Assembly (NCBI GenBank): GCA_030620515.1
Contig: JAUXEM010000001.1
Span: forward strand, 2,779 to 66,778
Direction of reading: 5' to 3'
Length of the DNA stretch: 64,000 nucleotides
Source: Salinivirgaceae bacterium
GTDB taxonomy: Bacteria; Bacteroidota; Bacteroidia; Bacteroidales; SZUA-534
Below the pieces are notes generated by a model, which was not told the origin of the DNA, made no database searches, and worked only from the letters and a program-made list of their open reading frames with translations. The translations under genes were made by a program, and so were the position numbers. Below, piece by piece: positions 1 to 30,205 of this stretch (within the stretch, counting starts at the first letter, position 1; every line of letters begins with the position of its first letter).

Positions 1-66
1 AAAAACAATGGATTCCTTAAGCGTTTAGGCCCTGCTAAAGGCGGATGTTGGGAGGTCGTAGAATGA
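1..66 (+). CDS. 3' end of an unidentified upstream CDS (partial, runs off window start)
   Basis: Frame 1 is open from base 1 (..KNNGFLKRLGPAKGGCWEVVE*). Its TGA at 64-66 overlaps the ATG at 63 of the next gene (ATGA junction). Too short to assign a family. Confidence 0.3.
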   Translation, partial: KNNGFLKRLGPAKGGCWEVVE

Positions 67-1337
67 AAAAAGTATTGATTTTAGCTTACGATTTTCCACC
101 TTATACTTCCATGGGGGGGCAACGCCCATATGGCTGGTTTAAAAATCTCAAAGAATTTGGTATTGAACCAACGGTAATCACACGCCACTGGCCAAATGAA
201 ATTAAATCAAAAATTGATTATAGCAAGGCTTGTGGTGTCTCAAATGAAACAATTACAAATGAATATGGTACATTAATAAAAGTTCCATACAAAGAAAATT
301 TACGTGATAAAATATTGATTAATAATGGTTTTTCAAAGTATTCAAATATTAGAAAAACACTAAGCCTGTTTTATTCTATTTTTCAGCACCTTAGTTTTAA
401 ATTCGATAATAAATCTACAATTTTTTATGCGGCAAATTCACTGTTAGCAGAAAATAAAATTGACTGCATAATTGCAACTGGCGAACCATTTATTCTGTTT
501 AGATATGCACATAAATTGAGTTTACTATATAAAATCCCTTGGTTTGCTGACTATAGAGACTGTTGGAGCGATAACTTTGAAATTAATAGACTCGCAGGTT
601 TTGATAAAATATTACATAAAACATTATTTAAACTATTAGAAAAGCATTATGTTAGTTCAGCCAAGGCAATTACTACTGCTGCACCATTCTTTAAGGTTCA
701 ACTTCAGCAATTATTCCCAAATAAAAACATTGAGGTTATTTTTAATGGATTTCAAGAAAGAATTACATCAGCGTATAATGAAGTAATTAAACAGAATAAG
801 TTTGAAATAGCCTTCGCTGGTACAATTTATCCATTTCAACCAATTGAATTGTTTTTAGCTGGATTGAAATTGTTTGTAAACAAGAATAATGAAACTAAAA
901 TTAATGTTGTCTTTTATGGTACAGATTTTAATCAATCGCAAAAGGACAGGATTACAAATTTTGACAAATCACTAATCTCATATCTTACAACAACAGAAAG
1001 AATTGCTCAAAACTCACTGTATGACAAATTGAAAGAATGTTCCTTATTGCTATTATTAGATAATAAAGGTATGATTTCAGGAAAACTGTATGAATATCTT
1101 ACTATGAACAAAAAAATACTAATGGCTGGTGGCGATTCTGGCTCAATGGAACAGATATTAAAAGAAACAAACACCGGCATTATTTGCAACAGCCCTGAAG
1201 AAATATTACAAGCTTTACAAGAGGCTTATGTAGAATGGCAGCAAACAGGTCAAGTTAAATGCGAATCAAAAAACATTAAACAATATTCGCGAAAAGAACA
1301 AACTAAGAAATTGGCTGAATTATTGAAAAGCCTATAA
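63..1337 (+). CDS. Glycosyltransferase (GT-B fold, group-1/GT4-like)
   Basis: ORF 45..1337. The internal ATG at 63 gives the typical N-terminus MKKVLILAYDFPPYTSMGGQRP and overlaps the upstream stop. It lies in a polysaccharide-type neighbourhood with a second GT at 8622. Confidence 0.8.
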   Translation: MKKVLILAYDFPPYTSMGGQRPYGWFKNLKEFGIEPTVITRHWPNEIKSKIDYSKACGVSNETITNEYGTLIKVPYKENLRDKILINNGFSKYSNIRKTLSLFYSIFQHLSFKFDNKSTIFYAANSLLAENKIDCIIATGEPFILFRYAHKLSLLYKIPWFADYRDCWSDNFEINRLAGFDKILHKTLFKLLEKHYVSSAKAITTAAPFFKVQLQQLFPNKNIEVIFNGFQERITSAYNEVIKQNKFEIAFAGTIYPFQPIELFLAGLKLFVNKNNETKINVVFYGTDFNQSQKDRITNFDKSLISYLTTTERIAQNSLYDKLKECSLLLLLDNKGMISGKLYEYLTMNKKILMAGGDSGSMEQILKETNTGIICNSPEEILQALQEAYVEWQQTGQVKCESKNIKQYSRKEQTKKLAELLKSL

Positions 1338-1727: not shown

Positions 1728-2966
1728 ATGATAACAAGAGATAACTATTTTCTAGAAATTGAGTCAGCTTTTAAATCCCTGTCAATTGTTGTGTTGATTG
1801 GAGCCAGGCAGGTTGGCAAAACAACAATAATGCAGAATTATAAGTATGATAATAAAACACTAAAACTAAATGGACAAAACCCTGAAGTTGCAAAAATATT
1901 TCAGAAGTATTCAAATATATTGTCATATGTTAAGATAAATCTGAATTACCAATTAGATGGTTACTTGTTAATAGATGAATTTCAGTTTATATCAGGTATT
2001 TCAACAATGATGAAGTTGTTAGTTGATGAAAACACGAAACTCAAAATTATTGTTACCGGAAGCTCCAGTTTAGAAATTTTAAAAAATGTAGAAGAGTCGT
2101 TAGCGGGCAGGGTTAGAGTTATAAATGTTTATTCATTATCGTTTAGTGAGTTTGTTAAATTCAAAGATAAAAACACCTTTTCAGAGTTAAATAAATACAA
2201 TATTAACACTCCTGATGTTATTGCAAACAAACAATTAAAGTATTATTTAATTGATTTTTTAACTTATGGCGGTATGCCAAGAGTTGCCTTAGCGCAAAAG
2301 GAGAATGAGAAAAAGAAGCTACTGAATGATATGTATCAAACATATTTATTAAAAGATGTGAAAGCTTATGTTAAAAATGAAGATTCGGTTGGCTTTAATA
2401 CACTATTGCGACTTCTGGCAGCCCAAATATCAAACTTAGTAAATATTAATGAGTTGTCGAAATTATCAGGTTTATCATATAAAAAAGCACAAGAATATAT
2501 TTATCTGTTGGAACAAATGTTTATTATAAAACTTGTAGAGCCCTATTCTAATAATACAAAAAAGACTATTACAAAAATGAAAAAGGTATTTTTCTATGAT
2601 ATTGGAATGAGAAATATAATTTATAATAGTTTTAATGACATTCATATTAGAACAGATAACGGAGCCGTGTTTGAAAATTTTGTTTATCTCGAAATTCTAA
2701 AGTCAATGCAAGCTACCACAATAGTTAACTTTTATAGAACTAATGATAATGCTGAAATAGATTTTATTTTAAATGACATGAAAACTTTAATGTCAATTGA
2801 AGTTAAATTTAAAGATTTAGATAAGCCTGTTCATTTAAAAGCTTTGCAAACCTTCAATAAAACTGAAGGTGTGGCAAATTCGTATGTTATAAATAAGTTA
2901 TTGAATACAGAAGCAAACAATGTGAAATATATACAAGCTTATTTAATAAAACACATTTTTTCTTAG
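1728..2966 (+). CDS. AAA+ ATPase, AAA_14/DUF4143-type orphan ATP-binding protein
   Basis: 412-aa ORF with Walker A LIGARQVGKTT and Walker B-like LLIDEFQ. Length and C-terminal region are typical of DUF4143 ATPases. ATG start confirmed at 1728. Confidence 0.8.
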   Translation: MITRDNYFLEIESAFKSLSIVVLIGARQVGKTTIMQNYKYDNKTLKLNGQNPEVAKIFQKYSNILSYVKINLNYQLDGYLLIDEFQFISGISTMMKLLVDENTKLKIIVTGSSSLEILKNVEESLAGRVRVINVYSLSFSEFVKFKDKNTFSELNKYNINTPDVIANKQLKYYLIDFLTYGGMPRVALAQKENEKKKLLNDMYQTYLLKDVKAYVKNEDSVGFNTLLRLLAAQISNLVNINELSKLSGLSYKKAQEYIYLLEQMFIIKLVEPYSNNTKKTITKMKKVFFYDIGMRNIIYNSFNDIHIRTDNGAVFENFVYLEILKSMQATTIVNFYRTNDNAEIDFILNDMKTLMSIEVKFKDLDKPVHLKALQTFNKTEGVANSYVINKLLNTEANNVKYIQAYLIKHIFS

Positions 2967-3146: not shown

Positions 3147-4601
3147 GTTACTCTCCATACCTTTCCTAATTAAAATTAATACGACTACAAATAACAATTT
3201 TACAGGTATAACATACCTAACTAAACTTCCGAAATTCGCTGTTGTTAAGCCTATAAAAAAGGCAAAGGTTATGGTCATTATAAAAATAGATAGTACAAAA
3301 GGATCTTTGTAAACTCTCGTAAAGAAACCTAGCCCTTTTCGTTTAAAAAGCACAAAGAGAAAGAAGAATAAAAGAAATAGATTCTCTAATCCAGAGAAAA
3401 ACATTAATATACCCTCACCCTCCCAAATAAATGGTCTAAACAGTCCTGCTACAATAGCTTGCGGTGCCTTTTTAATAACTCCGGGTATGGTTGGCTCAAA
3501 TGTGCCTATATCGAAAGTATTACCTCCATAATAATCCTTTTTTAGGTCGTCTTGTATTATCCATGCTGTTTCAAGCATAGCATCAACACTGCCATAACGA
3601 GTATTTGCCTGTGAACTAGTTTGCACAAATATACCCAAACCACTTAACCAAATAACTAACATTACTAAGGGTAAGGCAATTACTCTTAAAAATGTACTTT
3701 TAATACGGTGCAAATAGTAAAAGCCTATCCAAATTAAACTAGAACCTATAGCAACATAAAACATAAAAGGTCTAATTGAAACAAGAATATAGCCCCAAAG
3801 CAATAACCATAATACATTAGCCCATGTTCTTTCTTTTTTAATAAAAATGCAATATATGTTAGTGTAAATAATTAGAATAGCGGTGAGTGTCCAGCCGTCT
3901 TTTAATATTCCACTGCTCCAAAAGACCACGCTAGGTATAAAAAAAACAGCATAGGCAAGCCATTTTTCATTAGAGGGGTAGAGCTCAACCAGCATTTTAT
4001 AAAAACGCCATATGCCAAAGTATAAAAAAAGGTTCATTACAATGGTATTACCTAAAAAACTACCTAAACCCAATAAATAAAAAGGTACATTAAAGCGACA
4101 AACCGCAAAGGAATTGGGGTCACGAAAATAAGTTGGCCAACCTGTGGTTCTGTCGAACATGCTAAAAACCTCAAGACTATGGTTACCTCCAAGTATTTTA
4201 AAAAAGGTAGGAATGTCTTTACCTAGCATTTTTACAGTACTGCCTGTTCCCCAGAAATAGTAAACGGTATCCCCACCGCCATAATAAAACAAGTAAATTA
4301 ATGCAAAAGCTAAGCCAGCAAATATTTTTACAAATAAACCTATGCGAAAGTATTTATAATAGGCATGCTCCTTAATATGTTTGTTTTTAATGCGTGTAGC
4401 TATAAAATAGGCTACTACAAGCAGGAGGGGTACTATGACGGCATCTTGTATGGTAATTATATTATTCAAGGTAAAAGTATTAAGTAAAAAGGCAAAAGTA
4501 TTAAGCCCGCCTGACTTATTCGGGCAGGTACAAAGTATCAAGTACAAAGTAAAGAGATTAAAGCAAAAAGGCAAAAGAATGTTGCGAGTTACGGGTCGCA
4601 A
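3120..4601 (-). CDS. Polytopic membrane protein of the polysaccharide locus (function unassigned; polymerase/ligase-like topology)
   Basis: 493-aa ORF with many hydrophobic segments. The first ~45 codons (about 4470-4601) are translated from intergenic repeat modules (gttgcgagttacggg, gcccgcctgacttattcgggcagg), so the true start is probably internal, e.g. TTG at 4469. Confidence 0.65.
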   Translation of the reverse strand: MRPVTRNILLPFCFNLFTLYLILCTCPNKSGGLNTFAFLLNTFTLNNIITIQDAVIVPLLLVVAYFIATRIKNKHIKEHAYYKYFRIGLFVKIFAGLAFALIYLFYYGGGDTVYYFWGTGSTVKMLGKDIPTFFKILGGNHSLEVFSMFDRTTGWPTYFRDPNSFAVCRFNVPFYLLGLGSFLGNTIVMNLFLYFGIWRFYKMLVELYPSNEKWLAYAVFFIPSVVFWSSGILKDGWTLTAILIIYTNIYCIFIKKERTWANVLWLLLWGYILVSIRPFMFYVAIGSSLIWIGFYYLHRIKSTFLRVIALPLVMLVIWLSGLGIFVQTSSQANTRYGSVDAMLETAWIIQDDLKKDYYGGNTFDIGTFEPTIPGVIKKAPQAIVAGLFRPFIWEGEGILMFFSGLENLFLLFFFLFVLFKRKGLGFFTRVYKDPFVLSIFIMTITFAFFIGLTTANFGSLVRYVIPVKLLFVVVLILIRKGMESNSNGLQQSS

Positions 4602-4632
4602 GTTAAAATTGTTGCTGGTTGCAAATAAAAAC

Positions 4633-4885
4633 GTTGCGGGTTTCGAGTTAGAAGAGTGTTTTTTAATCTGTGTAAATCTGAGCTATCTGTGGTGCAAAGA
4701 AATGAGTAATAATTAATTAACAATTAGTAATGTGTAATTGAAGAAGCTTGCTGATTTGGTAGAGTGTTGCTGGTTAAAAAACTTTGTGCCTTTGTGGTTA
4801 AATAATTAACAATGATTAATGTGACCACCCTATCTGTCGACTAGGCAGACCGACTTATTCGGGTTTGCCTTCAGGCAGGAAATAG
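4633..4885. repeat. Intergenic repeat mosaic, copy block 1 (modules A-B-D-A-C-D-E)
   Basis: 4661-4775 is about 93 percent identical to 8062-8183. 4776-4885 has the same module order as 6231-6345 (ctttgtg module, aattaacaat..taatg module, ccctgtctg/caggcagg palindrome). Confidence 0.75.
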
Positions 4886-4890
4886 GAACA

Positions 4891-5199
4891 CTAAGTCTTT
4901 TTAATATAAATTATAATACCAACTCTTTCAATATGCTCGAGAAGTTCTGCATTTTTAATAAAGTTAAGCGTATTAAGATCAATTGAATAGGGTAACAAAA
5001 GATCATCTATGGCAAAATAGATTTTATGTAAGTCGCTTAAATCTATGTTTTTACCGGAAATCACTAGATCAATATCTGAGCCCTCAGTATAATTGCCCAA
5101 AGCTCTGGAGCCGTATAATGTGGTACTCTCAATTTTTTCAAATTTCATAAATACCTCAGCAAGCTTCTGTAAAGTGGTAGAACTTAATCCGTAAGGCAT
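4891..5199 (-). CDS. Nucleotidyltransferase-domain protein (MNT / HI0073-like antitoxin)
   Basis: 102 aa with the minimal NTase motif LYGSRALGNYTEGSDIDLVISG. It overlaps the upstream HEPN gene by 16 nt. Confidence 0.85.
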   Translation of the reverse strand: MPYGLSSTTLQKLAEVFMKFEKIESTTLYGSRALGNYTEGSDIDLVISGKNIDLSDLHKIYFAIDDLLLPYSIDLNTLNFIKNAELLEHIERVGIIIYIKKT

Positions 5200-5603
5200 A
5201 ATTTATCCATTTTTTCTTCAAAGGTTTTAAAAAGCTCAAAGTATTTATTTACTATCCTATTAAAAATCTGTTCCGTAATCTCTTCATTATAGGTATGCGA
5301 TGTTAAGTTTCTATCGGCGATCATCTCCATCCATGTTTCCCCTTTGCTAATTAAATTTAGATTAAACGCTTTACGAGTAGCATCTTTGGAACCATAAATT
5401 TCCGTATCGCCTCGGTCTTTCAGAAAATCCTTCATTACTTTCCAACATAGCTCATGTGTGTATTCAAAGCCTTGAATTATTCCTTGTTTCTCCAGATTGC
5501 TCAAGCCAACTTTGTAAAACTGATTTACTCCTTGTTCCAATGTGGCAAAGGCTTTCTTATAATTATTAAACCGTTGTTTCCATCTTATGTCTTTACTTTG
5601 CAT
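5184..5603 (-). CDS. HEPN-domain nucleotidyltransferase substrate-binding protein (HI0074 family toxin)
   Basis: 139 aa; N-terminus IRWKQRFNNYKKAFATLEQ and the later R..LTSHTYNE (Rx4-6H-like HEPN motif). Paired with the MNT gene. Confidence 0.85.
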   Translation of the reverse strand: MQSKDIRWKQRFNNYKKAFATLEQGVNQFYKVGLSNLEKQGIIQGFEYTHELCWKVMKDFLKDRGDTEIYGSKDATRKAFNLNLISKGETWMEMIADRNLTSHTYNEEITEQIFNRIVNKYFELFKTFEEKMDKLCLTD

Positions 5604-5689
5604 GGCTTATGTTGTTTTGTGCTAAATTACTTAATAAATATTAGTGTAGCAAAATGTAATATGTTTATAATTACGCTTCTTTGGTTGCG

Positions 5690-6345
5690 TACGGTAAAAG
5701 AAAAGAGTTTCGCAATTCGTGGTGCGGGTTAGGAAAAGAGTTGCTTGTTGCAAGTTGCCGGTTAAGAGTGTTACATGTTTCGGGATAATAAAACTGTTAC
5801 TGGTTACTAGTTGCTTGTTGGGAAAAAGTTGCTGGTTACTTGTTGCTAGTTAAAAACAGTGAAGGGTTGCGAGATAAAAAAATGGTTGCAGGTTGCAAAT
5901 AAAAGCGTTGCGTGATTCAGGTTACGAGTTAGAAGAGTGTTGCCAGTTGCTTTTTAATCTGTGTTATCGGTGGTGGTATGGAATGAGTTGCGAGTTACAT
6001 ATTTCGTGGTAATAAAACTGTTGCAGGTTACTTGTTGCTAGTTAAAAACCTTTGTGTTCTTTGTGAAAACAACTTTGAGTCCTTTGTGGTAAAAAGGAGT
6101 TGCTAGTTGCAGGTAAAGAATGTTGCTAGTTGCAGGTTACGAGTTAAAAAGCTCTAGTTAGCTGCTTTTTAATCTGTGAAAATCTGAGCTATCGGTGGTG
6201 AAAATAATAGAAACAAGTTGCTTGTTGCTGGTTAAAAAACTTTGTGTTCTTTGTGAAAACAACTTTGAGTGCTTTGTGGTGAAATAATTATTTAACAATT
6301 AGTAATGATTAATGAGCCCGCCCTGTCTGGCAGGTAGTGAGACAA
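5690..6345. repeat. Intergenic repeat mosaic, copy block 2 (about 650 bp, non-coding)
   Basis: Dense reiteration of gttgcNggtt(a/g)c words, two aatctgtg..atc(g/t)gtggt modules, two ctttgtgttctttgtgaaaacaactttgagtNctttgtggt modules, then aattatttaacaattagtaatgattaatg and a ccctgtctggcagg palindrome. 6026-6126 nearly equals 7927-8027. Confidence 0.8.
6144..6172. terminator. Symmetric A-run/stem/T-run hairpin inside repeat module B (bidirectional terminator-like)
   Basis: ttaaaaagc-tctagttagct-gctttttaa: perfect 9-bp stem flanked by an A-run 5' and a T-run 3'. Equivalent hairpins occur at 8302-8330 and 9873-9901. Confidence 0.4.
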
Positions 6346-6648
6346 AAAACAACATGCTGATAATATGCATATTAGGTAAAATCACAAGGTTTGTGCAAAA
6401 ATATTATTATCAGCTATAAATAAAAATTTAACGAACTGTTGTTAATAAAAGGCTTAATTCTTTCAATATATATAGCTCTTTCTATCATGTGTATTATTAT
6501 AATTGTGTAAAAATAGTGCGTTTATATGTTATATCATACAAAGCTAACAGATATAAACATTCTATAACTTAAGAAGTTGCGATTATTCTAGTTTGATTGT
6601 TTTCCTGACGGCGTAAACAGTAAGCAAGTAATAAGAGCGAATTATAAA

Positions 6649-7758
6649 CTACAGCCTCTCTAACCATTTCGAAAAGAAAACATCATAAACTTTATACGCA
6701 CCATCTTCATGATAAATCATTTCCTTATCAATTAATGTTTTTAGAGATTTATTTACTGAACTTTGCGAAAAATTATACTTTCTCAAAAAACTGTTGGCAT
6801 TGGGACTTTTAATGTTATTCTCCTTTGCTACTGCATGCAAAAGCCTAAACTGTAAGCTCGTTAAAATGTTACGATAGTTTAAATATACAAACTCGTTTTC
6901 GTTTAATATATTTTTAAATACTGTTGTGCTGTGTTTTTTTGTAACAACTTTTGTGCTGTAAGTAAATAGTTTATTAAAAAAGTACTGAACATAAAAAGTG
7001 TGCACATCTAAAAAAGAGATATACTCTTTTACTAAACTGAACTCAATTTGTTTGCCGGCATCATTAAATTTTTTCTTAATAAATTCCGCATACACATCAA
7101 TATCTATCCGCTCTAGGTTAAGCATTTGTGAGCTTTGATAAAATGGGCGACCGTAATTATTAAACATGCTAATTAGTATGTGTTTACTGCTGCCTGAAAA
7201 AATATAATTGTCTTTATGTTGATGCTGTATGTTGGTACGTAAAATTGCTTCAGTATTTTTTTCGGGATAAGTTGTTATTTGCTGAAATTCATCAATTGCT
7301 ATAAGGTACTTGTCTTTTTGTTTTGCAAGATACTCGAAAATACTCTCCAATGATTGCACAGCCTCTTCAGGTTTTGAATAAGCAATTTCAAAATTAGGTT
7401 CTCCGGTAATATTATCAATACTTACTTTTGCTTTTATTCCTGCTATTAATACAGAAAGCTTTTTTAGCCAATTTGAATTATTTTTTTCTTCTATTAACAA
7501 CGCCCTGCTAAAAACTTGTATAAAGTCTTGCAGTTTTTCAGTTTTTAGTATGTCGATATATAGTAAGCGGTAATCTTCTTTGTTTTTTTTTATGTTAAAA
7601 AATAAATGTTTTATCAAACCGGTTTTTCCTAATCGCCTTATTGATGTTAAGGTTACGTTTCGTCCATTTTTATATGCCGAAATCAGTTCTTGTGTTTCGC
7701 TGTTTCTATCACAAAAAAGCTCAGGCTTTATATAATCTAGTATGGGAAAGGGATTCAT
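6649..7758 (-). CDS. ATP-binding protein, archaeal-ATPase (ATPase_2)/DUF234-like orphan
   Basis: 369 aa; Walker A SIRRLGKTGL, Walker B YLIAIDEFQQ, and a C-terminal winged-helix-like region. Flanked on both sides by the repeat mosaic. Confidence 0.75.
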   Translation of the reverse strand: MNPFPILDYIKPELFCDRNSETQELISAYKNGRNVTLTSIRRLGKTGLIKHLFFNIKKNKEDYRLLYIDILKTEKLQDFIQVFSRALLIEEKNNSNWLKKLSVLIAGIKAKVSIDNITGEPNFEIAYSKPEEAVQSLESIFEYLAKQKDKYLIAIDEFQQITTYPEKNTEAILRTNIQHQHKDNYIFSGSSKHILISMFNNYGRPFYQSSQMLNLERIDIDVYAEFIKKKFNDAGKQIEFSLVKEYISFLDVHTFYVQYFFNKLFTYSTKVVTKKHSTTVFKNILNENEFVYLNYRNILTSLQFRLLHAVAKENNIKSPNANSFLRKYNFSQSSVNKSLKTLIDKEMIYHEDGAYKVYDVFFSKWLERL

Positions 7759-7790
7759 AATTAATACATTGTTAATTAATATTCAACAAC

Positions 7791-7834
7791 ATCACTAAAA
7801 GCGCATCACTTTTAGTGCATCGCTTTTGGTGATG
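7791..7834. promoter_or_regulatory. Three-segment mutually exclusive inverted repeats just upstream of the 6649..7758 gene
   Basis: atcactaaaagcg / catcacttttagtg / catcgcttttggtgatg. Segment 1 can pair with segment 2 (cactaaaag/cttttagtg) or with segment 3 (atcactaaaagcg/cgcttttggtgat). It lies 33 bp from the ATG at 7758. Confidence 0.3.
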
Positions 7835-7881
7835 TAAATGTATGGTTTTTATTATTATTATCAAAACACCCATAAGCCAAT

Positions 7882-8505
7882 AAAACTGTTGCTTGATACA
7901 GGTTACTTGTTGGGAAAACTGTTGATGGTTACTTGTTGCTAGATAAAAAACTTTGTGTTCTTTGTGAAAACAACTTTGAGTGCTTTGTGGTAAAAAGGAG
8001 TTGCTAGTTGCAGGTAAAGAATGTTGCAGGTTTCTGGGTAGGAAGAGTATTGCCAGTTGCTTTTTAATCTGTGTAAATCTGTGTTATCTGTGGTTAAAAG
8101 AAATGAGTAATAATTAATTAACAATTAGTAATGTGTAATGTGTAATTGAAGAAGCTTGCTGATTTGGTAGAGCGTTGCTGGTTGCTTGGTGCTGGATACT
8201 TGGAGCTAGTTAATGGTTAAAAAGGCTAAAAGTTTCAGAATACGAATTAAAATTCTTTGTGCCTTCGTGCCTTTGTGGTAAAATAAATAACAAGTTACGA
8301 GTTAAAAAGTTATAGATAGCTGCTTTTTAATCTGTGAAAATCTGTGTTATCTGTGGTTAAAATAAATGAGTTGCGGGTATCGTGGTAATAAAACTATTAC
8401 TGATTACTAGTTGCAAATAAAAGTGTTGCGGGTTTCGTGTTGGGCGTTGTAAAATGCTTATTGGTTGCGGGTCTCGTGTTTTGGGGTAGTAACATTGTTG
8501 CTGCT
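7882..8505. repeat. Intergenic repeat mosaic, copy block 3 (about 620 bp, non-coding)
   Basis: Same module vocabulary as blocks 1 and 2. 7927-8027 matches 6026-6126, 8062-8183 matches 4661-4775, and 8285-8375 matches 6125-6215. Confidence 0.8.
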
Positions 8506-8621
8506 TTAAATATTTGGGGAATTAAAGTTATTCCTGACTGTTTGATAAATCTGCCTGCCATTGTAGCAAAAGAAGAAAGCCCCTGGCTAAGTAAATAATT
8601 AGAATTTACTACTTTTAGCAA

Positions 8622-9860
8622 ATGCAAAACAAACAAGTACTATATATTTCCTACGATGGAATGACTGACAACCTGGGGCAGTCGCAAGTTATTCCCTACC
8701 TTAAAGGCTTAACTGAAAAAGGTTACCACTTCACCATCCTTAGCTTTGAGAAAGCAGAAAACTATAAAAAGAACAAACAAAACATTGCTAAAATTCTAGC
8801 TGATGCTAATATATATTGGCATCCTTTAAATTATACTTATACTCCACCTGTGGTATCAACTATAAAAGACATTCGAACTTTATTAAAAATAGCAGAAGTA
8901 TTGCATAAAGAAAGAACCTTTTCTATTGTACATTGCCGAAGCTATATTTCAGCTTTTGCAGGATTGGCACTTCAACGAAAATATGGAGTAAAGTTTATTT
9001 TTGATATGCGCGGCTTTTGGCCCGATGAACGTGTGGAGGGAAATATATGGAACAAAAATAATCTTGTTTTCAACTTAGTCTATAATTATTTTAAACGCCA
9101 AGAGAACAAATACTTTAACAACTCTGATTATACTATAAGTTTAACTGAAACAGGAAAAACGGAAATACAAAGCTGGTTGAATATAAAGAATAATCCAATT
9201 CCGATTGAAGTAATTCCTTGTTGTGCCGACTTTAATCATTTTAAAAGATCTGATACTCAATATTTTGAAACTGCTAATCTAAAAAAGAAGTTTAACCTTA
9301 ATACTGATGACTTTGTTCTTTCCTATTTAGGATCAGTCGGTACTTGGTACATGCTAGATGAAATGCTTGACTTTTTCAAAGTTTTGCTTGCTCGAAAACC
9401 AAATGCAAAGTTCTTGTTCATAACAGGAGAACCAGAATCCATTATTTTATCGGCTGCAGAGGAAAAGAATATTTCAGCTGAGCATTTTATTATTGAATCA
9501 TCACCAAGAGAATTAGTGCCTGTCTATATCGCTTTAAGTACAGTTTCTATATTTTTTATAAAACCAGTTTTTTCTAAAAAAGCCTCCTCACCTACTAAAA
9601 TGGCTGAAATTTTGGGAATGGGTATTCCTATTATCTGCAACGATAACGTTGGCGATGTTGGTCAAATTATTAATGAAACTGGGGTTGGGATAGCAATAAG
9701 TAATTTCAATAGTGAGTCCTATCTGAATGCTATAAATAAAATAGATTCACTATTAAAAATAGATCCTTCGCAAATTAGTCAATCAGCTATTTCGCGTTTT
9801 TCTTTAAATGGTGGTGTTGAAAAATACGATTCGGTTTATAAAAAAGTGTTGAATAGTTAA
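8622..9860 (+). CDS. Glycosyltransferase family 4 (group 1)
   Basis: 412 aa; N-terminus MQNKQVLYISYDGMTDNLGQSQVIPYLKGL and C-terminal PTKMAEILGMGIPIICND (EX7E-region-like) are typical of GT4 enzymes. Confidence 0.85.
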   Translation: MQNKQVLYISYDGMTDNLGQSQVIPYLKGLTEKGYHFTILSFEKAENYKKNKQNIAKILADANIYWHPLNYTYTPPVVSTIKDIRTLLKIAEVLHKERTFSIVHCRSYISAFAGLALQRKYGVKFIFDMRGFWPDERVEGNIWNKNNLVFNLVYNYFKRQENKYFNNSDYTISLTETGKTEIQSWLNIKNNPIPIEVIPCCADFNHFKRSDTQYFETANLKKKFNLNTDDFVLSYLGSVGTWYMLDEMLDFFKVLLARKPNAKFLFITGEPESIILSAAEEKNISAEHFIIESSPRELVPVYIALSTVSIFFIKPVFSKKASSPTKMAEILGMGIPIICNDNVGDVGQIINETGVGIAISNFNSESYLNAINKIDSLLKIDPSQISQSAISRFSLNGGVEKYDSVYKKVLNS

Positions 9861-9872
9861 AACTGTTGCGAG

Positions 9873-9901
9873 TTAAAAAGTTATGGTTAGCTTTTTTTTA
9901 A
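9873..9901 (+). terminator. Hairpin plus T-run immediately after the GT stop (copy of repeat module B)
   Basis: ttaaaaag-ttatggttag-cttttttttaa starts 13 nt after the TAA at 9858-9860 and is followed by aatatgttaaaatctgtgtat (degenerate aatctgtg module). Confidence 0.5.
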
Positions 9902-10095
9902 TATGTTAAAATCTGTGTATATATTAACAATAATTACTTTAAACGATACCGTAATTATTTACCGCAATTTAACTCATCGTATCATTATAATAATTTTACA
10001 AACAATGAGATACTACACAAGCTTCATTAAATAATAATTTAAACACAAATTACTAAAAAAACTAACTTATTTTTATTCTACTGTAAAATTGCAGC

Positions 10096-11220: not shown

Positions 11221-11255
11221 AATTCTGTTTTTAATAAAATAGATCGTTAGTAATT

Positions 11256-11336
11256 AGACCTGCCTTGGCGGCAGACAGGTATGAGCTCGCCCTGTCTGCT
11301 GCCAAGCAGGCTGAACAATTCGGGTAGGTAGTGAGA
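11256..11336. repeat. Tandem pair of AGACCTGCC..CAGACAGG-family palindromes
   Basis: agacctgccttggcggcagacaggt, then gccctgtctgctgccaagcaggc, then ..ttcgggtaggtagtgagac. The prefix atagatcgttag..tagacctgcc is shared with 27107-27135, and the tail gtagtgagac with 6334-6343. Confidence 0.65.
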
Positions 11337-11560
11337 CTATAATTGAATATAGTAAGATATACTTAATTAAAGTATCTTTTCAACACAATTCACTACCTAA
11401 CACCAAAAATACATTAACGAACTCGTATGTTTACAAAGATAAATTAATATTTGTGACCTCTATTTTTCAAGCTAAAACAAATTCATTTTATATTTTTATA
11501 CTTTTCAAAACGAAGAAAAATTCTTCTAAATAAATATCCTATAAGTCTTAATAAAATACT

Positions 11561-11695
11561 CTTTCAAGTTAAATTCACTTTTAAAACGACGAAAAATCTA
11601 CGATGCGTTCGTATTTTTTCTAACCTGCATCAATTCGAAATCGTCCGCAGGACTTTTCAACATTGATATACGAGGATAACATTTAAATTGGATGG
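11561..11695 (+). repeat. RAYT-associated ~115-130 bp double-hairpin repeat, copy 1 (solo, upstream)
   Basis: ctttcaagttaaattcacttttaaaacgacgaaaaatctacgatgcgttcgt..caattcgaaatcgtccgcaggacttttcaacattgatatacgagg. High identity to copies at 11804 and 12735. Confidence 0.8.
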
Positions 11696-11803
11696 TTTTT
11701 TTCAACACCAAAAATAATAGTCCATTTAGTTGCGAATGCTACTTTCATATACAATAATTACCAAAATAACTGAAGCTTAATCATATATATTTACAACAAC
11801 CGT

Positions 11804-11935
11804 CTTTCAAGTTAAATTCACTTTTCAAACGACGAAAAATCTACGATGGTTTCGTGTTCTATCTAATCTGAATCAATTCGAAAACGTCCGCAGGACTTTT
11901 CAACATTGAGATACAAGGATAATATTTAAAATGAA
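11804..11935 (+). repeat. RAYT-associated double-hairpin repeat, copy 2 (91 bp upstream of transposase ATG)
   Basis: Same sequence family. Hairpin 1 is cgaaaa-atctacgatgg-tttcg; hairpin 2 is tcgaaaacgtcc-gcag-gacttttca. Confidence 0.8.
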
Positions 11936-13873: not shown

Positions 13874-15814
13874 ATGACAGTATTAAATTCAAAGATACCT
13901 AAAGGACCTTTGGCCGAAAAATGGTCGGAGCATAAAGCAAAAATTAATGTTGTAAGTCCGGCGAACAAACGCAAACTCGATGTTATTGTTGTTGGAACAG
14001 GATTAGCCGGAGCCTCGGCTGCTGCTAGTTTAGCTGAACTGGGATACAATGTAAAAGCATTCTGCTACCAAGATAGTCCACGTAGAGCTCACTCTATTGC
14101 AGCTCAGGGTGGTATAAATGCATCAAAAAATTACCAAAACGATAACGATAGTGTATATCGTCTTTTTTACGATACTATTAAAGGAGGAGACTACCGTGCA
14201 CGTGAAGGTAATGTTTACCGTTTAGCCGAAGTGTCGGGTAGTATTATAGACCAATGTGTAGCACAAGGCGTTCCCTTTGGACGTGAATACGGTGGCTTAC
14301 TTGCTAACCGCTCATTTGGTGGTGTATTGGTAAGTCGTACTTTTTATGCTCGCGGACAAACAGGTCAGCAGCTGTTAATAGGTGCATACGGCGCACTTAA
14401 TCGCCAAATTAGTACCGGAAAAGTAGAATTGTTTTCTCGCCACGAAATGCTCGATATTGTAAAAATTGATGGCAAAGCACGTGGTATTGTTGCTCGCGAC
14501 ATGGTAAGCGGCGAGGTTAAAAAATATGGTGCGCACGCTGTAGTAATTGCTACAGGTGGTTACGGAAACGTGTTTTTCTTGTCAACAAATGCAATGGGCT
14601 GTAATGGTGGGGCTGCATGGCAATCGTACAAACGTGGTGCTTACATGAGTAACCCTTGCTTTGTACAAATTCACCCAACATGTATTCCTGTTCATGGCGA
14701 CCAACAAAGTAAGCTAACGCTAATGTCGGAATCGTTACGTAACGACGGACGTATTTGGGTACCAAAGAAAAAAGAAGACGCAGAAAAACTACAAAAAGGT
14801 GAAATAGGACCAAACGATATAGCTGAAGAGGATAGAGATTTTTATTTGGAAAGAAGATATCCTAGCTACGGAAACCTTGTACCCCGCGATGTTGCTTCAC
14901 GCGCAGCAAAAGAGCGTTGCGATGCAGGTTTTGGGGTTAACAATACTGGCTTAGCTGTTTATTTAGATTTTAAATACAGCATTGAGCGTTTAGGTAAAGA
15001 TGTTATTGAAGCTCGTTACGGAAACCTTTTTCAGATGTACGAAAAAATTACTGATGTTAATCCATATGGAGAACCAATGCAGATTTATCCTGCTATTCAT
15101 TACACAATGGGTGGCACATGGGTAGATTATAATTTAATGACAACCATACCGGGTCTTTACTCAATTGGTGAGGCAAACTTTTCAGACCATGGTGGTAACC
15201 GCTTAGGTGCATCGGCGTTAATGCAAGGTTTAGCCGATGGTTATTTTGTATTGCCATACACTATAGGCGATTATCTTGCAAACGAAATTCAAACTCCTAA
15301 AATTGATACTAACGCTCCTGAATTTGAAGAGGTAGCGAAAGATGTTAAAAATCGTTTAGATACTTTAATGGCAATTAAAGGAACTAAGCCTGTTGACTAT
15401 TTCCATAAAAAGCTTGGTAAAGTTATGTGGGATTACGTTGGAATGAGCCGTAACGCCAAAGGTTTACAAAAAGCTATTGAGCTAATTGCCGAAATAAAAA
15501 CAGAATTCTGGGCTGATGTTCGCGTACCGGGTGAGCAAAACGAATTAAACCAAGAGCTTGAGAAAGCAGGTCGTGTTGCCGACTTTATTGATATGGCAGA
15601 CCTTATGGCTCGTGATGCTTTAGCCAGAAACGAATCGTGCGGCGGGCATTACCGTGAAGAATCGGTTACTGAAGAGGGTGAAGCTATGCGTAACGATGAA
15701 ATTGGTTGTTATGCATCGGCATGGGAATTTAAAGGCGAAAAAGAAGAGCCACACATGCATAAAGAAGAGCTGAAATTTGAGACAGTTGAATTAACACAGC
15801 GTAGTTATAAATAA
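13874..15814 (+). CDS. sdhA: Succinate dehydrogenase/fumarate reductase flavoprotein subunit
   Basis: 646 aa; FAD fold [22 protein letters not shown], covalent-FAD region [13 protein letters not shown], and active-site HYTMGG. Confidence 0.95.
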
Positions 15815-15851
15815 ACTCAGTATCAAGACTATTAGAATCAAGATTTGTAGT

Positions 15852-16202
15852 ATGCATAATTTTAGAGAACTCAAAGTTTGGCAAAAAGCAAGGTATCTGT
15901 ATAAAGATATTTATTTGCTAACTAAACGTTTTCCAAAGGAAGAACAATTTGGTGTTATTTCTCAGATGAGAAGAAGTACTCATTCAATAGCATCTAATAT
16001 ATCCGAAGGTTGTGGAAGAAATACAGATAAGGATTTATGTCGTTTTCTTGACATGGCTAATGGTAGCTCCTTTGAATTGGAGAATGATTTGATTCTTTGC
16101 AGTGATGTAGAGTTAATCACAAAAGAAGAACTAAAGATTTTTGAAGAAAAAGTTAAAGAAATTCAACGCATGATATTTAGCTTTAGAAAATCAAAAGAAT
16201 AA
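15852..16202 (+). CDS. Four-helix-bundle protein (23S rRNA-intervening-sequence protein family)
   Basis: 116 aa; N-terminus MHNFRELKVWQKARYLYKDIYLLTKRFPKEEQFGVISQMRRSTHSIASNISEG is diagnostic of this family. It sits between sdhA and sdhB. Confidence 0.85.
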   Translation: MHNFRELKVWQKARYLYKDIYLLTKRFPKEEQFGVISQMRRSTHSIASNISEGCGRNTDKDLCRFLDMANGSSFELENDLILCSDVELITKEELKIFEEKVKEIQRMIFSFRKSKE

Positions 16203-16207
16203 TTACT

Positions 16208-16235
16208 GAAAACCTGCCTTAGGCAGACAGGTTTT
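16208..16235 (+). terminator. Hairpin (AGACCTGCC-family palindrome) between the four-helix-bundle gene and sdhB
   Basis: aaaacctg-ccttaggcaga-caggtttt: 8-bp perfect stem followed by tttg. Position is intra-operonic. Confidence 0.4.
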
Positions 16236-16262
16236 GTACTTGATACTTAAAATCTTAATACT

Positions 16263-17024
16263 ATGATTGAAAAAATATTAAATGAAATAACACTAAAAGT
16301 TTGGCGTCAGAAAAATGCAACGGCAAAAGGTGCTTTTGAAACTTATACAGTTAAAAATATATCTACCGACACTTCTTTTATGGAGATGTTGGACATTTTA
16401 AACTATCAACTGGTTGAAGAGGGTAAAGACCCTATTGCATTTGACCACGATTGCCGCGAAGGTATTTGCGGAACTTGTAGCTTGTTTATTAATGGTCGTG
16501 CACATGGACCCGATAACGACATTACAACTTGTCAGCTACATATGCGTAAGTTTAAAGATGGTGAGACTATTACAATTGAACCTTGGCGCGGTACAGCTTT
16601 TCCGGTAACCAAAGATTTAATTGTTGACCGTAATGCTTTCGAGAAGATTCTTTATGCGGGTGGATTTGTATCGGTAAACACAGGCGGTGTTCCTGATGGT
16701 AATGCTATTCCTATTGGTTACGATGAATCAGAATCGGCAATGGATGCTGCGGCATGTATTGGCTGCGGAGCTTGCGTAGCAACATGTAAAAACTCATCGG
16801 CAATGCTATTCGTATCGGCAAAAGTATCGCACTTGGCTCGTTTACCTCAAGGTAAAGTGGAAGCTGTTAAGCGTGCAAAATCAATGGTAGCAAAAATGGA
16901 TGAGCTTGGTTTTGGTGGATGCTCAAACACCGGAGCATGCGAAATAGAGTGCCCAAAAGGTATTTCGATTGCAAGCATTGCAAAACTAAACCGCGAGTAC
17001 CTAACTGCTAAGTTTATGGAGTAA
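16263..17024 (+). CDS. sdhB: Succinate dehydrogenase/fumarate reductase iron-sulfur subunit
   Basis: 253 aa; 2Fe-2[11 protein letters not shown], 4Fe-4[12 protein letters not shown], 3Fe-4[13 protein letters not shown]. Confidence 0.95.
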
Positions 17025-17081: not shown

Positions 17082-17149
17082 ATAGTAGTAAATTAAATGC
17101 TAATGACACAGGCTAATAAAACAACGAACACAGATGACGCGGATTAAAC

Positions 17150-17270: not shown

Positions 17271-17463
17271 CCCAAATAGATTAAACAGATTTACAGGACT
17301 ATAAGAATAATTAAATAATTATCTGTGAAAATCTGTGCTATCTGTGGTGATTATTAAAAGCCACCAATTCACGAATAGTCATGTCGGTAAACGGTATCCT
17401 TTTAAAACTATATCCTGCTGCAATTAGAATAATAACTTTCCTTTTTTTATTGTATTCATATAA

Positions 17464-19735: not shown

Positions 19736-19820
19736 TAGACTTGCCAGCAGGCTTAATATCAAACCTTGGCTACTTAGCGGCTTTGCGAGAAACAAAGACC
19801 TGTCTGCCACAGACAGGTTT
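19736..19820. repeat. AGACCTG(C/T)CT..CAGACAGG-family palindromes
   Basis: tagacttgccagcaggc, then 43 nt, then agacctgtctgccacagacaggt (perfect cctgtctg/cagacagg stem). Confidence 0.6.
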
Positions 19821-20058: not shown

Positions 20059-21171
20059 CTAACCTTCAATAAGCTCATTAATCCAATTTGCATCTTCTTT
20101 TATTCTAGTATATAAAGATGTTGAAAAACGCTTAGAGAATTTTGCATCCCAAAACCATTTTTCAATATGCTTAATATGCTCTTCGCTAATTTCGGTGTGT
20201 CCACTTTTAAAGAAATAGTATTGTATTACTGGCATAAGATTATGATAAACAGAAATGTCGTTAACTACACGCATGTGCTTAAAGAAATTTAATGTTGCAT
20301 TTAACGCGGTTTTGGTTCTTGGCCATAAACGATAGCATAATTCAGGCGATAATCTTAATTGGTATAAGTTTCTGGCATCGTCAAACGCATTTAGGGTTAA
20401 CGACAAAGTAAAAACCTTATTACTAATTTTTCCAAATTGCTTTATCACTTTTGGCGTATTAAACTCTGCAATTTTTTCTTTTAAATCGAATTTATCTGAC
20501 CAAGTTGCGGCATGAATTAAGTCGAATACGGTAAGGTGTTTTCCTCCTTGATTTATTCGTTCAAATATCTCAACAACTTCATCCAGTTCTTCGTTATTGG
20601 TTTTTACAATACTAATGGGGTAGTTTGAAAAAACCTCTTGGCATTCGCGCCAAACCTCAGCTAGTTTGTTATTCTTTTTTCCAAATTTTTTATCGTCCAT
20701 TAAAAGCTCTGCATATACTTCACCATATTTTTCAGTATCGAATAATTTCCAAGCAGGAATGTTATTTTTCTCTCTTTTGCTTCTTGGAATTCTAAATTCT
20801 TGCTTTTCAGGATTAAAACAAATACTTCCATAATCAACCTTATCGAACACCTTTCCCCTTAGCGATACATACAACGATATCATACGTTGCTGCCCATCAA
20901 GTATAAACTGGAATGAACCATTTTGTGCCGCGGGCTTAAAACCTAAAGAATCGTTTTCACGAATAAAGCCAGAGTATTCTGAAGGAGCTATCCAAAAAAA
21001 GAATGAACCGATGGGAAACTGGTTATAAATAGAATTAAGTAGCTTTACTACCTTGGTTTTTTCCCAAATATAATCGCGCTGAAATTTGGGAATTTTAATA
21101 TGACCAGCCTCTAGTTCCGAAATCAGTTTTTTAAGATTCCAGTTGTTAATTATCTCCAGTTTTTGTTCCAT
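20059..21171 (-). CDS. DUF262 (ParB-like nuclease/GmrSD N-terminal-type) domain protein
   Basis: 370 aa; IKIPKFQRDYIWEKTKVVKLLNSIYNQFPIGSFFFW and FILDGQQRMISL are the DUF262 signature motifs. No DUF1524/HNH half is visible. Confidence 0.8.
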   Translation of the reverse strand: MEQKLEIINNWNLKKLISELEAGHIKIPKFQRDYIWEKTKVVKLLNSIYNQFPIGSFFFWIAPSEYSGFIRENDSLGFKPAAQNGSFQFILDGQQRMISLYVSLRGKVFDKVDYGSICFNPEKQEFRIPRSKREKNNIPAWKLFDTEKYGEVYAELLMDDKKFGKKNNKLAEVWRECQEVFSNYPISIVKTNNEELDEVVEIFERINQGGKHLTVFDLIHAATWSDKFDLKEKIAEFNTPKVIKQFGKISNKVFTLSLTLNAFDDARNLYQLRLSPELCYRLWPRTKTALNATLNFFKHMRVVNDISVYHNLMPVIQYYFFKSGHTEISEEHIKHIEKWFWDAKFSKRFSTSLYTRIKEDANWINELIEG

Positions 21172-27106: not shown

Positions 27107-27177
27107 ATAGATCGTTAGATTTTAGACCTGCCTGCAGACAGGCATTATATGTTAGACCTGTGTGCAGCCGGCAGGCA
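27107..27177. repeat. Tandem AGACCTGCCT..CAGACAGG-family palindromes
   Basis: atagatcgttagattttagacctgcctgcagacaggc, then attatatgt, then tagacctgtgtgcagccggcaggc. Confidence 0.65.
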
Positions 27178-30113: not shown

Positions 30114-30148
30114 AAGACCTGCCTGAAAGTAAACCTCGTCAGACAGGC
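30114..30148. repeat. AGACCTGCCT..CAGACAGG-family palindrome
   Basis: aagacctgcctgaaagtaaacctcgtcagacaggc, in the def/TPR intergenic region. Confidence 0.6.
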
Positions 30149-30205
30149 ACTTTAATCATTGTATATTATGTGTCTCTATATTTATTTCAGCCATGAGCCG
30201 TTTCA

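Follow-up and report, generated by a model that had tools for sequence, protein, structure and literature searches.

A one-strand mosaic of short word repeats at an accessory-gene hotspot of a Salinivirgaceae bacterium, and related inverted repeats around GxxExxY genes

A 64,000-nucleotide (nt) stretch of contig JAUXEM010000001.1 of a Salinivirgaceae bacterium, hereafter called the window, contains three non-coding blocks of mosaic repeat DNA. They lie inside a conserved glycosyltransferase/membrane-protein cluster together with two inserted cassettes, one with an MNT-HEPN gene pair and one with an ATPase gene. Copying and reshuffling of the array have been local, and copies are in direct orientation without exception. 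In our judgement there is an even chance that the blocks are non-coding, strand-asymmetric repeat DNA in the gaps of an accessory-gene hotspot, in which orphan half-sites have been amplified and shuffled by local duplication and gene conversion, which leaves the cassettes flanked by homologous direct repeats. What matters most is that two of the modules, B and C, tie to word-array inverted repeats that bracket GxxExxY genes and are apparently undescribed, with a putative function and a putative mobility.

Small accessory genes, among them toxin-antitoxin pairs and genes for DUF4143-type ATPases, GxxExxY proteins and 23S intervening-sequence (IVS) proteins, are found at odd places in many bacterial genomes and have no known vehicle. 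Here a conserved sugar-transferase cluster has repeatedly gained such genes within a repeat matrix, and two modules of the mosaic led to a cross-phylum inverted-repeat architecture around the very common GxxExxY family. If the link between repeats and GxxExxY is causal, the family gains a testable DNA substrate, and the repeats would be a new kind of element resembling repetitive extragenic palindromes (REPs) and would offer a mechanism for the origin of intergenic hotspots. If it is not, the locus is still a clear case of fast turnover of short-period intergenic repeats.

The mosaic blocks and their relatives

The non-coding mosaic amounts to ~1.7 kb over the three blocks (Table 1), in a genome of ~32% G+C. 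Each block is a chain of word runs, in which two to four tandem copies of a 7-10-nt word end in GG(T) and are followed by an A-run; the tandem repeat finder reports period-7 rows there. Module A, confined to this lineage, consists of GTTRCNN words that start every 7 nt (e.g. 5740/5747/5754, 5796/5803/5810 and 6122/6129/6136). For the pattern GTTRCNNGTT the window has 38 matches where 3.65 are expected and shuffling gives 10 at most, and 35 of the 38 lie within 4581-9874, all of these on the + strand. Module B reads TTTTT-AATCTGTG-n-AAATCTGTG-n-TATCTGTGGT, a threefold AATCTGYG with AAATCTGYG as middle word; its core has six matches in the window versus 0.01 expected, five in the blocks and one at 17330. 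Module C has the form CTTTGTG-nn-CTTTGTG...CTTTGTGGT, with two to four CTTTGTG words and the end GTGGT. Module D is a ATTAGTAATGA-like motif, and (A/T)TTCGTGGT words also occur in the blocks. With these counts, the small module set in varying order and number that was first proposed from a sequence-only reading of the window is real, and so are the outlying copies which that reading listed, a decayed A+B copy and a single B arm beyond the blocks.

The evidence for local copying comes from identity and orientation. The two long near-identities proposed at the outset are exact: 4661-4775 and 8062-8183 have 110 of 115 bases in common (5 substitutions) plus one 7-nt insertion, a tandem duplication of GTAATGT, and 6026-6126 and 7927-8027 agree at 98 of 101 positions. 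Recent copying or gene conversion, which had also been suggested, is the simplest reading of the 97% identity over 101 nt in the second pair and of the 7-nt tandem duplication within one copy of the first. On a larger scale, two 221-nt composites form direct repeats on either side of the ATPase cassette, and the direct repeats 4657-4775 and 8058-8183 enclose both cassettes; these long colinear composites include private module-A words. When the region 4400-10000 was compared with itself, all 22 significant matches were direct and none was inverted, and a repeat search gave only four weak long-range inverted pairs. Module copies in the blocks are on the + strand throughout, with no opposite orientation among the ~45 word runs of the window. 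Local direct copying explains both the high identities and the single-strand orientation. The + strand of the blocks has 24-26% G and 10-13% C, compared with 17% and 16% in the whole window.

The blocks have the highest repeat density of the 26 intergenic regions of the window, one 117-nt spacer excepted. Only short, stop-ridden open reading frames overlap them, no target-site duplications were seen in them, and scans for sigma-70 promoters and intrinsic terminators, made with a consensus that is not the Bacteroidota one, found nothing above shuffles within them. The extents first given hold for blocks 2 and 3, but block 1 starts at ~4482 and not at 4633. The sequence-only reading had further described the blocks as coinciding exactly with the boundaries of orphan genes in three accessory cassettes. 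This was too strong: non-repeat flanks of 86-303 nt that belong to the cassettes intervene (5604-5689, 6346-6648 and 7759-7881), the genes are identified as MNT, HEPN and ATPase, and between the blocks these three form two cassettes. New to the present analysis are the strict confinement to one strand, the build of the modules from short-period words and the nature of B and C as half-sites of cross-phylum inverted repeats.

Module E had been counted among the block modules and is not confined to the blocks. Its stems, CCTGCC-loop-GGCGGG/GGCAGG, stand just 3' of both minus-strand cassettes and were not called by the terminator scan because they have no T-run. Related hairpins elsewhere in the window are small GC-rich palindromes of the form GACCTGYCTGC...GCAGACAGG, two of them with ATAGATCGTTAG-n6-AGA ahead, and a module E copy of greater length, with the end ...GGTAGTGAGAC, is found at 11285-11337. 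These copies make E a dispersed genome element that is not specific to the mosaic. Another palindrome, the 25-nt near-perfect CACTAAAAGCGCATCACTTTTAGTG at 7793-7817, belongs to the non-repeat flank on the upstream side of the ATPase cassette and is the origin of chance-level mir-5881 hits in Rfam; it is possibly an operator or a bidirectional terminator.

Related loci were collected with the glycosyltransferase as bait, whose closest homologues are at most 72% identical; relatives carry PorV and a C25 peptidase, a sign of Bacteroidota. The most informative is L120, which has the same core genes with core proteins 70% identical, and in which mosaics lie between every inserted gene (5020-5560, 6925-7350, 8685-9240 and 11250-11900). 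They are G-rich and C-poor (C 8%) on the same strand as those of the window, and modules B (TATCTGTGTGAATCTGTGTTATCGGTGGTG) and D are common to both. Instead of module A, L120 uses other heptamers (TTAGANN, GTGAAAA/CGAAAA) and has one GTTRCNNGTTRC only. The genes surrounded by its mosaics encode AAA_14, HEPN-MNT and HipA proteins and are non-orthologous to those of the window: identity is 45% between the HEPN proteins, 31% between the MNT proteins and 23% between the ATPases, while the membrane proteins share 70%. A mosaic at the same place with non-orthologous accessory genes means that the site is a recurrent insertion hotspot. The proposal that the modules are tied to variable genes is borne out, L120 having the same mosaic type with different accessory genes; module E and single B copies are also found beside housekeeping genes (9862-9936, 17321-17348, 11259-11337, 16213, 19799, 27127 and 30117). 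In L121, words of the L120 type adjoin the membrane-protein gene. Despite turnover of the word sequences, the window, L120 and L121 have the mosaic in one and the same orientation to the core genes, and the mosaic is a fast-evolving feature of one sub-lineage.

Other relatives show different arrangements, and the further accessory genes inserted into the core cluster of L124 and L308 add to the evidence for a hotspot. L122 and L307 have neither insertions nor mosaic. In L124 and L125 the same core cluster includes a DUF4143 ATPase and an AbiE pair, along with a repeat of another kind. In L124, whose core cluster is 60% identical, this ~110-nt repeat (..caggaacttttctcattYacaaagtaaataatc..agatccctcgtca..ctgtcgggatgaca) lies at 4353-4480 and 8030-8130, upstream of both inserted cassettes. 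L120 has in addition a ~80-nt module, GTGAAAAACGAAAAGTTAATAGTTAAAAATTAGGTGGG + GTCAACnnGTTnTCGTCnnnAGGTCATGAC, with an internal hairpin, in four direct copies (~5300-5370, 7065-7140, 7245-7320 and 8705-8790) around its two AAA_14 genes; the window lacks it.

Genes for AAA_14 ATPases occupy varying positions of the glycosyltransferase cluster in every relative examined: 1728-2966 in the window, where no mosaic surrounds the gene, 1044-2255 in L308, 4514-5869 in L124, and 5707-6924 and 7497-8684 in L120. The ATPases of the window, L308 and L124 have a DUF4143 domain, and in L308 the gene is fused up against the glycosyltransferase gene. At 23% identity, the one pair compared (the window against L120 5707-6924) suggests that AAA_14 ATPase genes have been inserted repeatedly and independently.

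Word-array inverted repeats and GxxExxY genes

The 21-mer TTTTTAATCTGTGNAAATCTG was searched in a collection with one genome per species and found in at least 119 loci, over which the similarity to module B spans ~35 nt. The hosts include Flavobacterium, Bacteroidales, Treponema, Gallionella, Candidatus Thiosymbion, Chloroflexota, Planctomycetota, Verrucomicrobiota, Nitrospinota, Acidobacteriota and others; hairpins of the module-B type are carried by Flavobacterium, Alkalitalea, Gallionella and Candidatus Thiosymbion. The counts that follow are among the matches listed. About 107 of the 119 sites are intergenic, and their neighbours are mostly housekeeping genes. The ATCYGYG words come mostly in threes; lone triplets have one orientation in 36 cases and the other in 34, and paired arms are '<<<>>>' in 18 cases (plus ~30 partial variants) and '>>><<<' in two. 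The polarity of the pair is therefore fixed as CCRCAGATT three times, a T-rich loop, and AATCTGYGG three times. In its full form the class consists of a CCRC-word three times, an A/T-rich loop or a small gene, and the word three times with the end GYGG; each arm has two to four tandem 8-10-nt words, terminates outwards in GYGG (CCRC in the partner arm) and is bordered by an A/T run on its inner side. Modules B and C both have this build, but in the three blocks no complementary arm stands opposite either of them, be it within ~100 nt or beyond a small gene.

Module C occurs as an arm of ACCACAAAGG...CCTTTGTGGT hairpins in L060 and in contigs of a viral collection. A scan of that collection with CTTTGTGNNCTTTGTGGT returned many hairpins of the type ACCACAAAGG-a-CACGAAGG-at-CACAAAGG / loop / CCTTCGTG-tt-CCTTTGTG-tc-CTTTGTGGT, along with lone arms after T-runs and chance hits in coding sequence. 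The C word class (CTTTGTG / CTTCGTG / CTTTGCG) is also among the word types that flank PDDEXK_3 genes, and together with the C-type hairpins this makes modules B and C right-hand arms of one architectural class. In L002 252-300 and L108 1-110 (Porphyromonadaceae metagenome-assembled genome, MAG) heptamer runs of CTACTAGCAACTAAGAACTAAAAACTAGAAACTAG, and not the complement, stand ahead of a module-B arm. These heptamers are the reverse complement of module-A-like words, and the layout implies that arms of different word types can be juxtaposed, as they are in the window. Treponema MAGs have tandem arrays of up to 14 units of AATCCGTGTT / AATCTGCGTT words adjoining inverted sets (L114 235-646, L031 999-1302 and L082 2790-3104), far larger than the usual triplets. 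Neither Rfam nor the searchable literature, whose coverage excludes most subscription journals and database family notes, has a description of word-array inverted repeats, and the class is apparently undescribed so far.

The commonest neighbour family at module-B sites is PF13366 (PDDEXK_3), equivalent to TIGR04256, the GxxExxY protein. All seven PDDEXK_3 genes at module-B loci touch the motif and four lie exactly between the arms. PDDEXK_3 is the only family enriched in the neighbour census, in which toxin-antitoxin and ATPase genes are not. In L068 (Alkalitalea saponilacus) the GxxExxY gene, at 4879-5247, is flanked by arrays of empty hairpins, and such tandem arrays adjoin the gene in L126 as well. 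A sample chosen on protein only comprised 80 metagenomic loci that encode a PDDEXK_3 relative, 70 of them with both flanks. At least 14 complementary nt face each other across the gene in 31 of the 70, compared with 1 of 70 after shuffling, and most genes of this sample (L126-L205) lie between inverted word arrays of the same build. The flanking word differs by lineage (CACAGATT, CGCAGAGG, CACGAAG, CGCAAAGG, ACGAAGG, ACAGGAT, CGCGAATT), and 58 of 85 PDDEXK_3 loci have at least three words of one class in their 130-nt flanks. Protein identity is 50% within and 44% between word classes (p<0.001), and the nearest protein neighbour shares the word class in 48 of 57 cases, two figures that are confounded by host phylogeny.

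A survey of PD-(D/E)XK proteins from 2012 lists PDDEXK_3 as a family of unknown function that has been transferred several times between divisions (PMC3424549). No solved structure in the PDB matched a GxxExxY profile by sequence, and the searchable literature, with most subscription journals outside its coverage, has no report that links GxxExxY/PF13366 to flanking repeats. Six loci (L148, L153, L157, L158, L159 and L170) share the position of a GxxExxY gene with CCTCTGCG-type arms: it is enclosed by two genes that extend, as coding sequence, into the flanks on either side. Since identity of the flanking DNA is no more than 70-80%, some copies at least are old and stably inherited and not recently mobile.

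A small gene nested in an inverted word repeat, the same habit as that of the GxxExxY genes, is also found in the window itself. It is a 23S_rRNA_IVP gene (116 aa, four-helix bundle) at 15852-16202, between sdhA (13874-15814) and sdhB (16263-17024), and the entire spacer 15819-16262 around it is made up of an inverted word pair at 15819-15842 / 16239-16262 that is 79% complementary, with TATCAAGA words, and of the E-type hairpin 16211-16233. The likeness to 23S rRNA intervening sequences with open reading frames is that of a small, selfish-looking gene in an inverted-repeat loop. The differences are that the 23S_rRNA_IVP site of the window is not in rRNA, that the mosaic blocks are without such a gene, and that the PDDEXK_3 arms gave no evidence of pairing at the RNA level.

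Origin of the mosaic

Whether the arms are read as DNA or as RNA bears on every explanation of the blocks. In the paired PDDEXK_3 arms G.U and A.C mismatches are balanced (49 and 45), and lone arms have no strand preference relative to co-directional flanking genes (24 vs 24). On neither strand did blocks 2 and 3 show a folding signal (z between -1.7 and +0.75). At the gathering score Rfam has no match in the window; a permissive search of 4400-10000 returned only chance-level hits (E up to 5), and 18 hairpin-bearing loci likewise had no match. Arms disagree at 41% of spacer and 6% of word positions, a contrast that is too high because the pattern used in the search itself dictated five of the seven word positions. 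Balanced mismatches, freer spacers and the lack of strand bias and of folding or Rfam signals favour recognition words at the DNA level over an RNA stem, and the nested nuclease-fold protein is the obvious candidate for reading them.

If the blocks arose as stated at the outset, the words would originally have been recognition sites of a small site-specific protein, most likely a GxxExxY nuclease, and not parts of an RNA stem. Only orphan half-sites of the B/C class would remain, mixed with the heptamer runs of A, the motif D and the hairpin E. Slippage, unequal crossing-over and gene conversion may have multiplied and rearranged them, and the resulting 100-220-nt direct-repeat composites would provide homology for recombination around the cassettes. 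A cassette could be gained by Campbell-type integration of a circle carrying one repeat copy and lost by looping out through homologous recombination between direct repeats; it is plausible that gain and loss via the repeats keep the site a hotspot.

Several observations weigh against this account. No pair of an empty and an occupied site was found, and a search of 205 loci for empty versus occupied orthologous sites gave occupied pairs only, so that both cassette turnover through the repeats and mobility of the word-array elements are putative. The window and L120 have no GxxExxY gene (tblastn with a GxxExxY protein). L307, L308, L122 and L124 are without mosaic (L307 and L308 are closer relatives, in which intermediate mosaics were sought), so the mosaic is not needed for the hotspot or for insertion. 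The housekeeping neighbours of module-B sites imply that the class is not tied to accessory genes, GxxExxY excepted, and several PDDEXK_3 genes share their locus in genomes with flanking DNA 73-80% identical, which looks stable and not mobile. L120 and L121 have the mosaic in the same orientation to the core genes, which could be a sign that orientation is under selection, something that pure local duplication does not need.

We speculate, with rather little confidence, that GxxExxY (PDDEXK_3) nucleases and their cognate word-array inverted repeats may form an undescribed selfish system, analogous to REP doublets forming hairpins (REPINs) and their REP-associated tyrosine transposases (RAYTs) and spread across bacterial phyla. 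Hairpins and orphan arms would seed intergenic recombination hotspots, and the mosaic of the window would be such a hotspot that captured toxin-antitoxin and ATPase cassettes and now evolves by orphan-arm duplication. The B/C class resembles REPIN-RAYT systems in its scattered intergenic inverted pairs with a single small enzyme gene between one pair, in the coexistence of empty and gene-carrying versions, and in a repeat type that follows the protein lineage. It differs in the fold of the protein, in arms of three 8-10-nt words with free spacers, in the use of the same word across phyla and in a mobility that is putative; the window holds orphan arms only.

Two further explanations are each unlikely, though not negligibly so. 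According to the first, the word runs are working protein-binding arrays today, occupied by a nucleoid-associated or silencing protein or by the winged-helix domains of the neighbouring ATPases, which insulate or silence the inserted genes while selection maintains orientation and phasing. The word period of 7-10 bp with spacers free to vary, an orientation to the core genes that stays constant from the window to L120 and L121 despite word turnover, and the TrmB-like C-terminus of the ATPase 6649-7758 are in line with this. However, no candidate binding protein was identified, relatives have the same hotspot without mosaic, and copies that are 82-97% identical over 100-220 nt, spacers included, indicate recent copying and not site-by-site conservation.

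According to the second, which we rate just as low, every arm was left behind when an active element like a miniature inverted-repeat transposable element (MITE), with word arrays as its ends and the GxxExxY nuclease as its enzyme, inserted or excised on a separate occasion; the mosaic would then record repeated rounds of transposition or homing to a single spot and not local duplication. Gene-carrying and empty pairs do resemble insertion sequences (IS) and MITEs, or RAYTs and REPINs; the empty-hairpin tandem arrays beside genes in L068 and L126 would fit, as would the PDDEXK_3 phylogeny with its multiple transfers (PMC3424549). Scars should nevertheless occur in both arm orientations, and the window has none in the opposite one; target-site duplications are missing, and colinear composites with private module-A words fit segmental copying better. 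As to MITE/IS features in general, the blocks have neither inverted repeats nor target duplications, while B/C arms are paired elsewhere with no transposase linked; no known annotated MITE or IS end was matched, in a comparison that did not extend to ISfinder.

A function as RNA is still less probable. The minus-strand transcript, being C-rich, G-poor and unstructured, might act as a Rho-loading (rut-like) terminator or insulator, or the plus strand might supply a G/U-rich leader of the glycosyltransferase gene or a small RNA. The base composition of the + strand, the very weak folding of minus-strand RNA (-61 and -84 kcal/mol for 624 and 656 nt) and the position of blocks 1 and 2 on the 3' side of minus-strand cassettes would suit this. 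Block 3, on the other hand, is 3' of no minus-strand gene, there is no Rfam match or folding signal, and lone arms elsewhere show no strand preference relative to genes. In L120 the sense RNA would be C-poor and a poor Rho substrate because all genes there are on the G-rich strand.

We regard as very improbable a polar DNA signal tied to the direction of replication or recombination, in which the ...G(G/T)TGGTG arm ends would be Chi-like. Their orientation is strictly one-way, the G-rich strand is the locally G-skewed one, and the arm ends have what we take to be a likeness to GCTGGTGG; but the same arms elsewhere occur in both orientations and in inverted pairs, and the skew of the window follows gene orientation. 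An integron-like or other site-specific cassette array with the blocks as recombination sites is largely refuted, since, although toxin-antitoxin and small accessory genes are separated by repeats and different cassettes occupy the same place in relatives, there are no attC-type imperfect palindromes or inverted matches, the blocks measure 400-650 and not 60-140 nt, the minus-strand cassettes face against the neighbouring plus-strand core gene, and no integrase or recombinase is among the genes annotated from 1 to 25.6 kb.

Known repeat families were also compared with the blocks. Integron arrays and pdif modules are alike in that small accessory genes, toxin-antitoxin pairs included, alternate with repeats and gene content varies between relatives; they are unlike in that the window has no attC/dif-like sites and no recombinase, its blocks are long and heterogeneous, and cassette orientation is mixed. 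An integron attC array of the kind called CALIN (cluster of attC sites lacking integron-integrases), in which co-oriented cassettes are each followed by an imperfect palindrome of 60-140 nt with R''/L''-L'/R' boxes (GTTRRRY at the 3' end), was rejected on the lack of palindromy and of an integrase and on block length. Bacterial interspersed mosaic elements (BIMEs) and REPs are likewise intergenic, non-coding and multi-copy, and form mosaics of few short motifs in varying order and number, often at gene ends. REP units, however, are single imperfect palindromes of ~20-40 nt that can form stem-loops, in alternating orientation, with a GTAG head and RAYT transposases, whereas the blocks consist of tandem word runs in one orientation without palindromes, and the gene associated elsewhere encodes a GxxExxY protein of PD-(D/E)XK fold and not a Y1 transposase. 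This identity was rejected, with no inverted against 22 direct self-matches, arms that start or end with CCRC/GYGG and not GTAG/CGTC, and no transposase among the annotated neighbour genes of the window. A CRISPR (clustered regularly interspaced short palindromic repeat) array, with identical 24-48-nt repeats at regular intervals, was discarded because the repeats of the blocks are irregularly spaced and lack unique spacers of uniform length, and a structured RNA for the missing Rfam and folding signals.

Heterocystous cyanobacteria have short tandemly repeated repetitive sequences (STRRs), heptamers in imperfect tandem array that lie between genes and are not known to have a function. The same description fits module A as well as the NNAAAAG, GTGAAAA and TTAGANN runs of the window and L120. 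They come from another phylum with other sequences, that of module A presumably being unrelated to the cyanobacterial STRRs, and the runs in the window have two to four units, end in GG and an A-run, and are interleaved with other modules.

Other features of the window

The coordinates of the blocks, modules and genes are collected in Table 1. The two genes of the first cassette (4891-5603) are predicted to be a type VII toxin-antitoxin-like pair.

Table 1. Features of the locus; positions refer to the window unless another locus is named
Feature	Position	Strand	Remarks
GT-like gene	45-1337	+	
DUF4143/AAA_14 ATPase gene	1728-2966	+	accessory
Polytopic membrane protein, core gene	3120 to ~4481	-	start codon abuts block 1; 70% identical to L120 counterpart
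Mosaic block 1	4482-4885	+	start fixed by membrane-protein alignment to L120; order: heptamer word runs (NNAAAAG, GTACAAA, GTTGCNN), E-like hairpin 4503-4531, B arm, D, A, short C arm, D', E
Cassette 1, MNT nucleotidyltransferase	4891-5199	-	cassette 1 as a whole: Pfam PF18765, PF01909 and PF08780; NCBIfam MntA and HI0074
Cassette 1, HEPN / NTase substrate-binding subunit	5184-5603	-	family matches of cassette 1 in the row above
Mosaic block 2	5690-6345	+	many A runs, truncated B arm (5951-5974), C (6050-6090), full B arm (6166-6199), C (6240-6280), D (6290-6307), E (6316-6345)
221-nt composite (A-A-C-A-A-B), left copy	5987-6207	+	
Module E hairpin CCTGCC-AGACA-GGGCGGG	6316-6345	-	3' of minus-strand ATPase cassette
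Cassette 2, 369-aa P-loop ATPase	6649-7758	-	weak ATPase_2 / AAA_14 / KAP matches; TrmB-like winged-helix C-terminus
Mosaic block 3	7882-8505	+	A runs, C (7951-7991), B (8061-8094), D with 7-nt duplication (8116-8146), short C (8255-8279), B (8324-8357), TTCGTG-type words
221-nt composite, right copy	7888-8102	+	direct repeat of 5987-6207, 82% over 221 nt, core 97%
Module C copy CTTTGTGTTCTTTGTGAAAACAACTTTGAGTGCTTTGTGGT	7951-7991	+	four CTTTGTG-type words, end GTGGT
Module C, other copies	6050-6090, 6240-6280, 4782-4798, 8255-8279	+	
Module B, best copy TTTTTAATCTGTGTAAATCTGTGTTATCTGTGGT	8061-8094	+	three 9-10-nt words, T-run before, GTGGT and A-run after
Module B, other copies	4660-4693, 5951-5974, 6166-6199, 8324-8357	+	
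GT4-family glycosyltransferase, core gene	8622-9860	+	conserved widely in Bacteroidota
Decayed A+B copy	9862-9936	+	directly past glycosyltransferase stop codon; 9865-9918 87% to 8294-8347
Only B-type pair in window	17129-17146 and 17321-17348		partial left arm CACAGATgaCGCGGATT and full right arm ATCTGTGaaaATCTGTGctATCTGTGGT, 176 nt apart, no open reading frame between
Module E relatives in block 1	4826-4879, 4503-4531		4826-4879 is 3' of MNT
Dispersed E-type hairpins	11259-11337, 16211-16233, 19799-19819, 27127-27144, 30117-30150		
Regions with a GxxExxY gene (124-130 aa) exactly between arms	L017 3277-3842; L023 3756-4207; L063 510-1026; L110 960-1400		

Two further genes of the window, 10-15 kb from the mosaic, encode nuclease-type proteins, with no connection to the repeats seen for either: a GmrSD-type restriction endonuclease at 20059-21171 and a PDDEXK_2 protein ('PD-(D/E)XK nuclease family transposase', Rpn/YhgA-like) at 23052-23933.

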